Shown here: piece by piece, positions 6,476 to 14,351 of the stretch
How the letters are laid out: the number at the start of each line of letters is the position of its first letter
Numbering within the stretch: position 1 is the stretch's first letter
Translations under genes and position numbers: made by a program
Assembly (NCBI GenBank): GCA_964016885.1
Contig: OZ024742.1
Location: 286,874,001 to 286,938,000, forward strand
DNA from: Eledone cirrhosa
Lineage: Eukaryota
Direction of reading: 5' to 3'
DNA: 64,000 nucleotides
The notes under the pieces: generated by a model
Seen by the model: only the letters and a program-made list of their open reading frames with translations
Told to the model about the DNA's origin: nothing
Databases searched by the model: none

Positions 6476-6960
6476 TAAAAGAAATAGGATATCGCTTCAA
6501 GCATAGCTTTATACAATATGTATAAATATTTTGTATCTTCAAAGATATACGGTTTTAGGAAGCCGTAGCTATGCAAACACCGGGGGGCTAACGCTCTCTG
6601 GTGATGTCCAGCAGAAGCAAGAGGGACAACCGTCTATGCATTTCAGGCTTAACTGGCCTTCGTCAGGACGGTCCCTCCCACCGCCTGCGACTACTGGACT
6701 AGAAGACAGCTGAGAATATATACTTTTCTCGTCTGTGTAAATGAGGTGATTAATCTCATTTGCATATAAAGCTGCATAAGTTGGCTCAACTTATAATAAA
6801 AAAAGAAATAGGATTTCGCTTCAAGCATAGCTTTATACAATATTTATAAATATTTCGTATCTCCAAAGAAATACGGTTTTAGGAAGCCGTAGCTATGCAA
6901 ACACCGGGGGGAGGGGGGCTAACGCCCTCTGGCGATGTCCTGCAGAAGCAAGGGGGACAA
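6476..6960 (-). mobile_element. Non-coding HHR-bearing element: ~324-nt monomer plus partial tandem copy (pLTR or retrozyme-like)
   Basis: GAAATAGGAT.TCGCTTCAAGCATAGC...GGGACAA at 6481-6629 recurs at 6805-6960 (period 324). (TA)n on both sides. Contains the HHR at 6621-6677. Confidence 0.8.
6621..6677 (-). ncRNA. Minimal type I hammerhead ribozyme, intact core
   Basis: Minus strand: ACCGUC-CUGACGA-AGGC CAGUUAA GCCU-GAAA-UGC-AUA^-GACGGU. Stem I 6 bp (extendable by GAGGGAC/GUCCCUC), stem II 4 bp, palindromic stem III AUGCAU, cleavage triplet AUA. Confidence 0.85.
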
Positions 6961-8712
6961 TATATATATATATATATATATATATATATATATATATATA
7001 TATATATATATATATATATATATATATATATATAAAATGTTACAGTATCGTAAAAACGGATGGAAAGAAGAGGTATAAAGAGGTGCGATACAGGGTATTA
7101 CATGCCAAAAGCGGGTGCGTAAGTGTTCGATGCTTGGGTTATCAGGGTTAAATATTAGAGAAAATTAATATTTAGTGTACAGGATTAAGCAGACCGGTTA
7201 TAGGCAAAATAATTAATGAAAGAGTTACAAGCCGTTAAATCATATCTTTATAAAGCTCTTACACGTGTTTCGCCTAATGGGGCTCGCCTGAGGCAGATAT
7301 TAAGGCAAAGTTTTAATTATATACCCTATTCGGATAAAATAATAATTTTATATCAGAGCATATTAAATATACGTGGTTAAGTATAAAACACAGAGGAAAG
7401 AGATTAGTTTGCTAAGGGAGGTAATTAGCGGTAATTACCAGAGCACACACACACGCACACACACACACACACACACACACACACATGTATATATATATAT
7501 ATATATATATATATATATACATGTGTGTGTGTGTGTGTGTGTGTGTATATATATACAAATATACATATACATATATATATATATACAAATATACACACAC
7601 ACACACGCACATATATATATATATATATATATATATATAAATGAAAATATAGAAATTAATGTGAGCAAGAAGCCAACAGTATTTCATAATATATATATAT
7701 ATATATATATATATATATATATATATATATATATATATATATATATATACAAATATACATATACATATATATATATATATATACAAATATACAAATATAT
7801 ATATGTATATGTATATTTGTATATACATATATATGTATGTATGTATATATATATATATATATATATATATATATATATATATATATATATATATATATAT
7901 ATAGAAATATATATACATATATGTGTGTGTGTGTGTGTATGCAACGTCAAGTTAGTAAAAACAATACCAGCAAATCCAAACATAAAACATTACAAAAAAA
8001 AAAAACTATAAAAACTAAAGTACAAAAAAAATAATAATAAACATAGATGTATGGTGGTAGCAAGAGTGACAGGGGGAGTAGATGGTGTTAGGTAGAGAGA
8101 CAAAGTGACTGAGAAGGGGGAGATAATGTGTGTATATATATATATGTATTTGTGTCTGTATGCTTGTATATGTGTATGTGCGAAATTATGCGACTGTTTG
8201 TGCAAGTGTGTATATGTGTGTTCATCTGTATGTTTGGTTGTATGTGTGGTATAGTTGTCTATGTATGCACATATATATATACATATGTGTGTATATATAT
8301 ATATTATATATATATGTGTATGTATATATATATATTATATATATATGTGTATGTATATATATATATATATATATATATATATATATGTATATATATGTAT
8401 ATATATATATATATATATATATATATATATATATATATATATATATATATATATATATATATATATATGTATATATGCATATATTTTTGTATGTGTGAGA
8501 ATATATATGTGTGTGTTGGTGTGCATATGTGTATGTCTGTGCGTAAGCTTGTTGCGTGTATATATATATAATTATGTGTCTCTCTGCGAGTATGTGTATG
8601 TAATTGTGTGTATGTGTCTGCATATGTATATGTGTGTGCTTATGTGTATGAGGTTAAGTGGGAGGGACCTAATACTATAATGTCTGGTTACGCTTATTAC
8701 AAAGGTTGATTC

Positions 8713-9305
8713 ATGGTGGTGGTGATGGAGGTGATGGTGATGGCGGTGGTGAAGCTTGCAGTGATGCTGGTGGTGGTGGTGGTGGTGAAGCTTGCAGTGA
8801 TGCTGGTGGTGGTGGTGGTGGTGGTGGTGGTGAAGCTTGCAGTGATGCTGGCGGTGGTGGTGGTGGTGAAGCTTGCAGTGATGCTGGCGCTTGCATTGTT
8901 AATAGTAGAAGTGGTGGTGGTGGTGGTAGTGATGGTGGTGGTGGTGATGGTGATGGTGATGGTGATGGTGATGGTGGTGGTGGTGGTGGTGGTGGTGGTG
9001 GTGGTGGTGGTGGTGGTGGTGGTGGTGGTGGTGGTGGTGGTGGTGAAGCTTGCAGTGATGCTGGAGCTTGCATTGTTAATAGTAGAAGTGGTCGTGGTGG
9101 TGGTAGTGATGGTGGTGGTGGTGATGGTGGTGGTGGTGGTGGTGGTGGTGGTGGTGGTGGTGGTGGTGGTGGTGGTGGTGATGCTGGAGCTTGCATTGTT
9201 AATAGTAGGAGTGGTGGTGGTGGTGGCGAAGCTTGCAGTGATGCTGGCGCTTGCATTGTTAATAGTAGAAGTGGTGGTGGTGGTGGTGGTGGTGGTGGCG
9301 GTAGT
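8713..9305. repeat. (GGT)n-based compound minisatellite
   Basis: GGT/GAT runs interleaved with repeated GAAGCTTGCAGTGATGCTGG and GCTTGCATTGTTAATAGTAGAA cassettes. Confidence 0.9.
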
Positions 9306-9984
9306 AAATGCGTTGCTGCAACTGAGAAGCTGCACAAGTTTAATGACTGCAACAGATGCAGTGTGCTGCATTACTATACGTATATATATAGAGAGTGAGA
9401 GAACACACACACACACACACACACACACACACACACACACACACACACACACACACACACACACACTATATATATATATATATATATATATGTACAAAAT
9501 GATATATCTGAACACCTAATATGAAGTTACAAAATTGTGTGTGTGTGCATGTGTGTGCGAGTGTGTGTGTGCATGTGTGTGTGCATGTGTGTGTGTATGT
9601 GATCTATCTCAGAGCACGTGGTATTTATAGAAGTTAGATGCGCACATGCGCAAAAGAGACTATGGTAACGCTATGCATTTGGCAGAGGAACTGTATGTGT
9701 GTGTTGCTATATAGATGCATGCATACAAACACACATGCACACATATATACATAAATGCATGCATATATACATACACACGCACTTTCACACATACATATAT
9801 GCATGCATGTAGACATAAATACAAACATACAAACATAGCTACACACATACATACACACATATGTATATGTATACATACATACTTGCTTGAATTTATGCCT
9901 ATATACATACATACATACATACATGCTTGAATATATACCTACATACATATGTACTTGAATATACACACACACACATACACACAC

Positions 9985-10074
9985 ATACATACATACATAC
10001 ATACATACATACATACATACATACATACATACATACATACATACATACATACATACATACATACATACATACAT
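9985..10074. repeat. (ACAT)n tetranucleotide microsatellite
   Basis: Visible directly. Confidence 0.95.
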
Positions 10075-10269
10075 AAGTATATACACCCTAAAATACACGT
10101 TATAGTTCTAGAGACGCAGCCAAAAATATGAAGAGCGCGGATCAATTTTTGATAATTATCTTTTAAAGTCATTAAATTTATAGTTCTTTCCAACACTGCT
10201 TTCTTTTTCAGTATTTTTAACCTAATAAAAATTATTCATCTTTTTCTCAGTTTAAACCGAAATATATAT

Positions 10270-10606
10270 GTGGTCCCGTAACTACTACAAGAGTCGTGGG
10301 GGCCACCGTATTGACATACAGCGTTTCTTGGGAATTGTTAAGCCTGACGGAGCCCATCTCTCGCCAGGTCTGAATACAGCAGATTTCTTCCAGAGAAAGA
10401 TTGAAAGTGAGAGTGAGGAAATGATAAAGAGATATAGAGAAGGGATCAACCCCAGTACTAGACTGTTACCTTTTTTTTATCGACCTCGGAAGAATGAAAG
10501 GCAAAGTTGACCTCGGCGAGATTTGAACTGAGAAAGCAGAGAGCCGGAACAAATACCATAAAGCATCTCTCCGGCGTTCTAACGACTCAGTTAATTCGCT
10601 GCCAAG
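10270..10606 (-). mobile_element. Diverged SINE with a longer, different 3' tail and 16-bp TSD
   Basis: SINE body at 10450-10603. TSD AAACCGAAATATATAT at 10254-10269 and 10607-10622. Confidence 0.8.
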
Positions 10607-12987: not shown

Positions 12988-13112
12988 ATATAACACTATA
13001 CAGTCTTTGTGGGTGTATATAACACTATATACAGTCCTTGAGGGTGTATATACACTATAAACAGTCCTTGTGTGTGTATATAACACTATGCAGTCCTTGT
13101 GTGTGTATATAA
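12988..13112. repeat. ~29-31-bp minisatellite, about 4 copies
   Basis: Unit TATAACACTATACAGTCCTTGTGTGTGTA with variants. Confidence 0.85.
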
Positions 13113-13304
13113 TACATTCCTTCTTTGCCAGTGTAGTGTTGTCCAATTTCAGACGTTTATGCTGCAGTATTTTTACAATTCATAGAATTATTACAATTTT
13201 CATATTTCTCTAAAAGTTATGTAAGAAATATTCGTTTCAAATTTCAGTACAGGGCTAGTAGTTTGAAGTGGGTGGGGTGGGGGTGGGTGAATGGAAAGTT
13301 CAGG

Positions 13305-13855
13305 ATATCGACCCAGTAAATGACTGGTACTTTATTTTATCGATCGACTCCGGAAGGTTGGAAGGCAAAGCTAAACTCAGCAGGGTTTGAACTCAGAATG
13401 TTGAAGGTTCTAAGTAAATAATTGTTTCTACTTTTTGGCACAAGGCCAGCTATTACTGCAGTGTATTACTGGTACTTTATTTTATCGACCCCGTAAAGAT
13501 GAAAGGCAAAGTTAACCTCGGCGGGATTTGAACTCAGAATGGCAAGGGCCGTAACTCAATGCGTGATAGCATGGCGTCCGACCTTCTACCGATACTGCCA
13601 ATCCACCGCCCTAAGGTTCTAAGTAAATAATGGTTTCTGTTTTAGACACAAGGCCAACGATATTGAGAGATGGGGAAAGTCGATTAAATCAACCTCAAAC
13701 ACAGTGTATTACTGGTACCTTATTTTATCGACCCTGTGAGGATGAAAGGCAAAGCTAACTTCGGCGGGATTTGAACTCAGAACGTAAAGGGCCGTAAATA
13801 TATGTCGCAAAGCATGTTGTCCGGCGCTCTACCGATACTGCCAATCCATCGCCCT
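13305..13855 (-). mobile_element. Cluster of three head-to-tail SINE copies; the middle one is full length with a 19-bp TSD
   Basis: Bodies at about 13305-13403, 13423-13612 and 13632-13855. TSD AAGGTTCTAAGTAAATAAT at 13404-13422 and 13613-13631. Confidence 0.9.
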
Positions 13856-14152
13856 TAGTTATGTAAAAAAATTGATGTCTGGTGCATATTCTAAGTCTTT
13901 AATTATAAATCAATCAATCAGTCAGTAAATTGATCAATCAATGACTGCGCGTATTAATCAATAACATTATACGCGATACTAGAGAGTTGTTCTATCATCA
14001 ATTTATTTCGTTTGTATCGTTTAGCAGCCAGAAATATATATATATATAAATAAATATATATATATATATATATATATATATATATATATATCGTTTAGCA
14101 GCCAGAAATATATATATATATATATATATATATATATATATATATATATATA

Positions 14153-14276
14153 TATATAGCATTTTCTTAAGTATACATCGGCTGAGTAGCCTCATTTGCA
14201 TACCGAACGAATTACGGCTAGCTCGGTATGCAAATGAGGCTACTCAGCCGATGTATACTTAAGAAAATGCTATATA
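14153..14276. repeat. Perfect inverted repeat with ~54-bp arms, immediately upstream of an HHR
   Basis: GCATTTTCTTAAGTATACATCGGCTGAGTAGCCTCATTTGCATACCGA (to 14206), a 16-nt spacer, then its reverse complement from 14223. Confidence 0.92.
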
Positions 14277-14308
14277 TTTCCAACTGTTCAACAGACTGGC
14301 TGAGGTAT

Positions 14309-14351
14309 ACAGTCCTGATGAAGGGTAATGACCCAGAAACATGTTGATTGT
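14309..14351 (+). ncRNA. Minimal type I hammerhead ribozyme, intact core
   Basis: ACAGUC-CUGAUGA-A GGGU AAUG ACCC A-GAAAC-AU-GUU^-GAUUGU. Stem I 6 bp with one G-U, stem II 4 bp after an A.A mismatch, palindromic stem III AACAUGUU. Confidence 0.78.

Follow-up and report, generated by a model that had tools for sequence, protein, structure and literature searches.

As far as the accessible text of a 2020 review goes, metazoan retrozymes, which are small retroelements with hammerhead ribozymes, seem to harbour no promoter, and read-through transcription was proposed for them (PMC7761336). Circular RNA was shown for the retrozymes of coral, mussel and axolotl, according to the available part of the report (Cervera & de la Pena 2020, PMC7229834), and the accessible portion of a 2026 preprint on their origin from Penelope-like elements (PLEs) contains 0 uses of 'promoter' (Li et al., bioRxiv 10.64898/2026.07.22.740005). 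Newt satellite 2, a hammerhead repeat of ~330 bp, is described in the excerpt available as having an internal promoter of the small nuclear RNA (snRNA) type for RNA polymerase II (Pol II; PMC2220036, citing Coats, Zhang and Epstein 1994). Here, we describe two hammerhead repeats of the mollusc Eledone cirrhosa whose units carry a promoter-like block of octamer, TCAG/TCAC box and TATA box. Both lie in a stretch of 64,000 nt (GenBank assembly GCA_964016885.1, contig OZ024742.1, positions 286,874,001 to 286,938,000 of the forward strand; hereafter the window). We estimate a probability of roughly 0.6 that the block acts as a promoter, more likely one for Pol II, with transcription starting ~30 nt past TATA.

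At each of the two divergent sites, the octamer ATGCAAATGAG is followed by the TATA box TATATATT and by a hammerhead core, CTGAYGA (Table 1). The original prediction, made from the letters of the window, had placed octamer and TATA 43 nt apart on both strands, with AGAAAA 5' and CARCTGT 3' of each TATA, and all motifs as well as the spacing were re-found in these positions. As a fixed rule, however, the identical spacing does not stand, since it ranges from 41 to 47 nt across the families described below (41–43 in most copies of A–C and H, 45–47 in E, 45 in some copies of D and G). The two window copies are themselves homologous, with 55% identity over the 31 nt 5' of TATA and no gaps, so that their equal spacing is in part a matter of descent.

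The prediction had counted only two copies; the 3.0-Gb genome has ~25,000. The pattern ATGCAAAT-N33-38-TATAWA-N30-60-CTGAYGA gave 12,800 + 11,957 = 24,757 matches, as compared with 4 + 4 = 8 for the reversed pattern used as control. First-look candidates numbered 2,619 for family A, to which the plus-strand site belongs, and 1,936 for family B, that of the minus-strand site, while a pattern leaving out both families yielded 103 matches (2 for its reverse) and, together with later searches, led to the sister families C, D, E, G and H. The two sites are thus copies of related non-coding hammerhead repeats, i.e. non-LTR (long terminal repeat) retrozymes, which form a clade of about seven families. 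Their short units, with monomers of 411 nt in A, 330 nt in B and 442 nt in C, are found both in tandem and dispersed. Family C forms long tandem arrays of its 442-nt unit, each unit with promoter block and hammerhead (L121–L123; G000:C2:382.99-383.04 Mb), and these arrays are the most promising loci as sources of circular RNA. A 3,096-nt spacing of C copies does not point to an autonomous element, as had been considered, but is that of the 442-nt array.

Core, stems I–III and cut triplet are all present in the units. Both window hammerheads belong to type I: stem I is long, and stem III is a short palindrome of six bases (ACATGT and ATGCAT), a kind of stem that reviews link, in the text available, to cleavage as dimers (PMC7761336). 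Compared with shuffled sequences, they fold with z-scores of -4.3 (plus site) and -3.2 (minus site), 0 and 2 of 200 shuffles being equally stable, and the pairing of stem I is kept in families A, B, C, D and H despite their different sequences. An Rfam scan of the window returned 0 hammerheads at the gathering score and, at E<=10, none among the best 150 of 171 rows, in which microsatellite and microRNA noise was dominant. Folded as circles, the monomers are stable (z -5.6, -2.4 and -7.0; 30 shuffles each), which is not proof of circles in vivo.

The evidence for a promoter begins with conservation, measured over seven family consensuses. Identity reaches 0.97 in the octamer block and 0.90 in TATA, as against 0.33 in the bases upstream, 0.37 in the spacer and 0.35 in the bases 3' of TATA. 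The octamer extends to TATGCAAATNAG, in which the flanks T-1, A+9 and G+10 are kept (0.90) while base +8 varies between G, T and C (0.33); these flanks lie outside all search patterns. Neither part of any search pattern nor remarked on in the prediction are two further elements, a U1/U2-like TCA(G/C) box 25–28 nt 5' of TATA (25/25 copies of A, 32/33 of B, 42/49 of C and 8/11 of E) and a fixed GC-A, the hyphen preceding the presumed start base, exactly at TATA+30 (21/25 of A, 29/33 of B, 35/49 of C and 3/4 of D). The distance from TATA to GC-A is a constant 30 nt while that from TATA to the core is 44 nt in A and 56 nt in B. Families D, G and H comprise 4, 5 and 1 copies, respectively, the signature of G having been corrected to 5 copies after removal of A contaminants.

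The octamer is therefore better conserved than the bases around it, and the idea of a conserved promoter within the unit gains support at the level of sequence (motif columns at 0.90–0.97, neighbours at 0.33–0.37). CARCTGT, by comparison, was rejected as part of the signal, for it is unconserved across families (A 7/25, B 23/33, C 0/49, D 0/4, E 0/11, G 0/5, H 0/1). Among common variants in the three large ones of four contig runs, of unrecorded type and from one study, 0/12 fell in octamer, TCA box, TATA or core, where ~1.4 would be expected, a difference that is not significant. Two variants of the block may be recorded here. A C subfamily, seen among the first 100 pattern matches, has an 8-nt deletion 3' of TATA, by which TATA-to-core shrinks to 38 nt while octamer-to-TATA stays at 42, and family G (L029:170-300) shows three tandem octamer-like repeats at intervals of ~33 nt, preceded by an ATTGG box.

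The block had been likened to promoters of U6 and of histone H2B genes, and in the host genome, whose small-RNA genes were confirmed by Rfam, the first comparison holds. The two best-scoring U6 genes carry the octamer upstream of their TATA, as ATGCAAATGAG at -76 (L251) and ATGCAAATTAG at -77 (L252). It recurs at -77/-78 in the C19 U6 array (ATGCTAAT; as ATGCTAATTAG), at -77 in the best U6atac gene (ATGGAAAT; as ATGGAAATTAG) and, again as ATGCAAATGAG, at -77 in the single RNase MRP gene. These five octamer-bearing genes of RNA polymerase III (Pol III) have TATA at -30, a T-G start and 46–48 nt between octamer and TATA; at a per-gene probability of 0.0026, octamers in 5/26 genes would be met by chance with a probability of ~1e-8. 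Nine distinct U1/U2 promoters, obtained from 12/42 U1 and 23/48 U2 matches, are built otherwise, with TCART at -56 to -58 in 9/9, a TATA-like box near -30, an A start (AGC-A in 4/5 U1), AATTA at about -90 and the octamer in 0/9. The comparison with H2B fails, as 0/10 distinct H2B upstream regions of the host have an octamer near TATA (one ATGCTAAT is located 141 nt before the ATG, upstream of a TA tract), and an H2B-type promoter was rejected. The host snRNA promoters examined (L251–L253, L328, L336 versus L281–L283, L313, L316–L321) fall into two classes unlike the vertebrate plan. In human genes, the octamer is found at -250 to -170, within the distal element, according to the part of the source available (PMC9652321), which makes the compact form of the host unusual.

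With these host genes the repeats share an octamer of the form TATG(C/G)(A/T)AATNAG, TATA at ~-30, a TCA box 26–27 nt 5' of TATA and a GC-A start. Unlike the repeats, which have both, none of the host genes examined combines octamer and TCA box. The U1/U2 form is matched in the distance of TCA(G/C) and in the GC-A start, its fifth base differs except in family G, and AATTA was not seen in the repeats. As to the U6-type form, the octamer of the repeats is ~4 nt nearer to TATA than in the host Pol III genes, family E excepted: the host spacing of 46–48 nt is not that of the window copies (43) and is approached only by E (45–47) and by some copies of D and G (45). A T-G start and an oligo-T end are likewise absent from A–D, which have GC-A and T-runs inside the unit, and are partly present in E.

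If the block is a promoter, transcription would begin at TATA+30, which is 45 nt (A), 58 nt (B) or 47 nt (C) 5' of the predicted cut. The promoter of newt satellite 2 is reported to consist of an octamer plus a proximal sequence element (PSE), with a start ~46–47 nt before the cut, close to the 45–58 nt predicted here. In dimers and arrays the polymerase would then read through the next unit, promoter included, after which two hammerheads would cut out a unit-length RNA, likely as dimers given the palindromic stem III, and this RNA would probably circularise. A PLE-type reverse transcriptase (RT)/endonuclease may then use one or the other of two internal AT-rich sites for priming, copy more than one round and paste 1–2.3-mers into (TA)n, so that a promoter normally external to the gene would travel inside the RNA. 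The window copies themselves are probably not source copies, since in each a single ribozyme is complete and the start base is altered (GC-T in A, GT-A in B).

A promoter contained in a mobile RNA requires that the polymerase reads the full unit through to the next ribozyme. T5–T7 runs are situated on this path, at +300 in A and +219 in B, with the second cut sites at +456 and +388, respectively, and runs of at least five T precede the next promoter in 18/30 A loci and 26/30 B loci. It is these T-runs on the read-through path, together with the U1-like box and start, that lead us to favour Pol II over Pol III. A U6-type (type 3) Pol III promoter, whose short self-cleaving RNA would end at a T-run and which would yield promoter-bearing copies via occasional read-through, appears unlikely, albeit with some evidence on its side. 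In the host, the octamer at -76 to -78 is confined to Pol III genes (five loci, as opposed to 0/9 U1/U2), and in vertebrates a TATA following the PSE selects Pol III, by the available text of one source (PMC9652321). Furthermore, the old family E (L126–L137) combines a U6-like spacing of 45–47 nt with an MRP-like TATA (GTATATAAG), TT-G at TATA+30 in 4/11 copies and a T-run right after stem I, and is possibly a Pol III form. Yet a TATA-like box at ~-30 is likewise present in host U1/U2 genes, A–D and G show the U1/U2-type box together with an A at the start, and the T-runs precede the second cut in units that have nevertheless retained the promoter block, for which Pol III would have to read through.

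Several points weigh against the proposed reading as a whole. The families are homologous (see the 55% identity of A and B above), so that their shared motifs partly reflect descent, and the pattern that led to D, E and H demanded octamer and TATA; because of this selection and of the many C copies that stem from tandem arrays, the counts are not independent. The octamer–TATA distance of 42–43 nt in A–D departs from the 46–48 nt of host Pol III genes, and the TCAG match comprises only 3–4 letters, the host's fifth base being T and a full match being confined to family G. In addition, the octamer is absent from 14/17 distinct U6 loci and 7/8 U6atac loci examined, which in our judgement, by their flanks and altered 5' ends, are pseudogenes. 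The cut triplet of family A is GUU, its stem II has, family-wide, a mismatched A.A at the base, and the module occurs in the own 3' region of 0/46 PLE C-terminal hits, a small sample of PLE families.

The same shared ancestry would fit an inherited relic, captured once (a PLE pseudo-LTR or an snRNA gene being conceivable sources) and now inactive, with transcription provided solely by read-through from neighbours, the mode that the 2020 review puts forward for retrozymes (PMC7761336). Lineages without the module do spread. A census over 80 stretches of 10 kb, spread evenly, turned up 46 hammerhead-like motifs, as compared with 1 for the reversed control; 12/46 belong to the clade and 8/46 have the exact octamer, while 34/46, comprising six other multi-copy groups and six singletons, lie outside the clade and are module-free. 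The best 30 loci of a genome search with RF00163 represent another family (F), with the exact octamer within 130 nt in 0/30. That the module is general to the hammerheads of this genome was rejected on these grounds; it is lineage-specific. Nonetheless, a relic is rather improbable, as the motif columns have stayed at >=0.9 while spacer and stem columns fell to ~0.35, and as the GC-A has kept its distance from TATA despite the shift of the core between A and B.

The insertions of the clade carry Penelope-type footprints and display the marks of PLE-mobilised elements. By the portions of the sources available, such marks are partial tandems, inverted 5' copies, a 30–40-bp tail at one end and a bias for microsatellites (PMC8557442), the tail corresponding to two internal RT start sites (PMC11167929). 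In family B, whose end positions are given +/- 1 because the rotated reference is one base short at its join, the 3' ends fall at two AT-rich places ~40 nt apart (42/58 pieces in two 20-nt bins), the 5' ends are spread out, and the longest pieces, at 763 nt, exceed two monomers. An inverted 5' piece adjoins in 19/30 B loci, and in 11/19 of these exactly one end has the ~40-nt extension, one end stopping at ~120–134 and the other at ~160–177. The ends are mostly followed by (TA)n. A role of the motifs in the RNA or in integration instead of transcription, through recognition by the PLE protein or as AT-rich priming sites, is highly improbable, for although the preferred 3' ends are located 30–80 nt 5' of the octamer and TATATA resembles the (TA)n target, these ends are not at TATA or octamer, the PLE 3' ends examined lack the motifs, and in both sequence and order the motifs agree with promoter elements of the host.

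As for the PLEs themselves, 30 loci of a young family had the module in 0/30, and two cases of a module next to a PLE were set aside as separate nested insertions, in (TA)n or inside the open reading frame (ORF). Pfam named 0/8 PLE-like ORFs above its cut-off, and the ORFs are similar to one another in tblastn; we take all eight to be PLEs from this mutual similarity and from RT and GIY-YIG features. A fragment at 4005-4508 (minus strand) of the window resembles the C-terminal endonuclease part of such an ORF (32% over 173 aa). In one PLE family (L082:800-950, L076:1000-1130), the 3' hammerhead is preceded by a different candidate promoter with GCGCATGCGC-like and A(A/G)ATGGCG-like motifs, which are presumably NRF1- and YY1-type sites. 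A very young family (L158, L166, L170; G000:C1:437.20-437.21 Mb) shows many intact frames of 784 aa, arranged in tandems of 3,531 bp, and close to its 3' end lies a hammerhead-like motif of atypical form.

Table 1. Features of the window, with positions counted from its first nucleotide
Feature	Position	Strand	Remarks
Family B retrozyme insertion, ~1.5 monomers (330-nt unit)	6477..6960	-	(TA)n on either side; 5' end 5 nt past ribozyme cut site
T7 run in B unit, between one ribozyme and next promoter	6798..6804	-	would stop Pol III; adjoins one of two preferred 3' ends
Extended octamer TATGCAAATGAG (octamer 6765-6758)	6755..6766	-	12-mer identical upstream of host U6 (L251) and RNase MRP
TCAC, 27 nt 5' of TATA	6746..6749	-	position of host U1/U2 TCART element
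TATA box TATATATT	6715..6722	-	motif match
Predicted start (TATA+30)	6692	-	suggested by host snRNA gene geometry; 58 nt 5' of cut site
Type I hammerhead (B)	6630..6671	-	stem I CCGTC/GACGG, spanning ~6606-6699; core CTGACGA 6666-6660; GAAA 6644-6641; predicted cut AUA^ after 6635
Inverted 5'-truncated duplicate of family A promoter region (Penelope-type inversion)	14152..14222	-	adjoins (TA)n; contains third ATGCAAATGAG at 14201; 55-bp perfect arms 14152-14206 / 14223-14277
Family A retrozyme piece (411-nt unit), both ends truncated	14224..14388	+	2,619 first-look candidates
Extended octamer TATGCAAATGAG (octamer 14228-14235)	14227..14238	+	motif match
TCAG, 27 nt 5' of TATA	14244..14247	+	U1/U2-like position
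TATA box TATATATT	14271..14278	+	motif match
Predicted start (TATA+30)	14301	+	suggested by the same geometry; 45 nt 5' of cut site
Type I hammerhead (A)	14310..14350	+	stem I CAGTC/GATTG, spanning ~14286-14372; core CTGATGA 14315-14321; GAAA 14336-14339; predicted cut GUU^ after 14345
Family C sister copy with hammerhead (core at 59679)	59436..59702	-	5'-truncated: octamer and TATA missing
SINE-like (short interspersed nuclear element) element, tRNA-like head	14580-14700		ARAGORN calls no tRNA
80-bp satellite, 454 copies	17879-54196		neighbours 95% matching
Inverted repeats, 258 nt (96%)	57121-57378 / 59728-59985		further inverted element ~57100-57440, within 56900-57600
311-bp tandem of very common dispersed repeat	60567-61340		repeat often inserted into retrozymes

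Beyond the features listed in Table 1, octamers at 12909 (plus strand) and 12974 (minus strand) of the window stand without a hammerhead.

Taken together, the sequences permit a broader, more tentative proposal. Quite possibly, this clade of ~25,000 copies has built a chimeric promoter from the two snRNA promoter classes of its host, taking the octamer from one and the TCA box and start from the other, and carries it in a mobile circular RNA by means of ribozyme cutting and circular permutation. Its sister families would have split into Pol II-like (A–D, G) and Pol III-like (E) forms, and the U6-type genes of the host would rely on a POU octamer at -77 in place of the vertebrate PSE. How animal retrozymes reach high transcription in most tissues was explained in the available text of the 2020 review by assumed read-through, no promoter having been seen (PMC7761336). 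A promoter in the unit would instead predict a precise start at TATA+30 and three mutable boxes, and would raise the question of the polymerase, all of which is directly testable. It would also offer a route for retrotransposing an upstream snRNA-type promoter, which is impossible for ordinary SINEs. The repeats have spread ~25,000 octamer–TATA units over the genome. The outlined host U6 promoter could be of practical use in guide-RNA expression.

In comparison with known systems, the repeats agree with the metazoan non-LTR retrozymes, as portrayed in the parts of the sources available, in their non-coding units of a few hundred nt, the type I hammerhead with a weak stem III, dispersed as well as tandem copies and the link to Penelope (PMC7229834; bioRxiv 10.64898/2026.07.22.740005), and differ from those described in the accessible review text by their conserved promoter-like block (PMC7761336). 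With the PLE pseudo-LTR they share, by the same kind of partial account, a hammerhead and promoter in the repeated end, partial tandems, inverted 5' pieces, the tail and microsatellite targets, whereas the Penelope promoter is described there as TATA-less and similar to that of long interspersed nuclear elements, and the repeats have a TATA and no ORF (PMC8557442, PMC11167929, PMC2377424). The schistosome hammerhead SINE Sm-alpha is likewise a hammerhead repeat with a promoter of its own, in that case a tRNA-derived Pol III promoter according to the available passages (PMC2220036, PMC2770079); here the promoter would be of the upstream snRNA type, and no tRNA was called in the window. Our literature search, which covered neither subscription papers nor bioRxiv supplements, found no description of this promoter in retrozymes or of a mollusc U6 octamer at -77. 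The nearest counterpart is newt satellite 2, which, in the excerpt available, also joins a hammerhead unit to an internal snRNA-type promoter (PMC2220036). The newt repeat belongs to a different phylum, and the likeness is one of description. The Eledone repeats, for their part, have a TATA, fall into several sister families, are dispersed as PLE-type insertions and carry an octamer resembling that of host Pol III genes. Newt satellite 2 may hence be regarded as the precedent for the design, a so far lone case that the repeats, if their block indeed acts as proposed, would extend to an invertebrate, and the putative snRNA-type promoter would be new for this clade of retrozymes.

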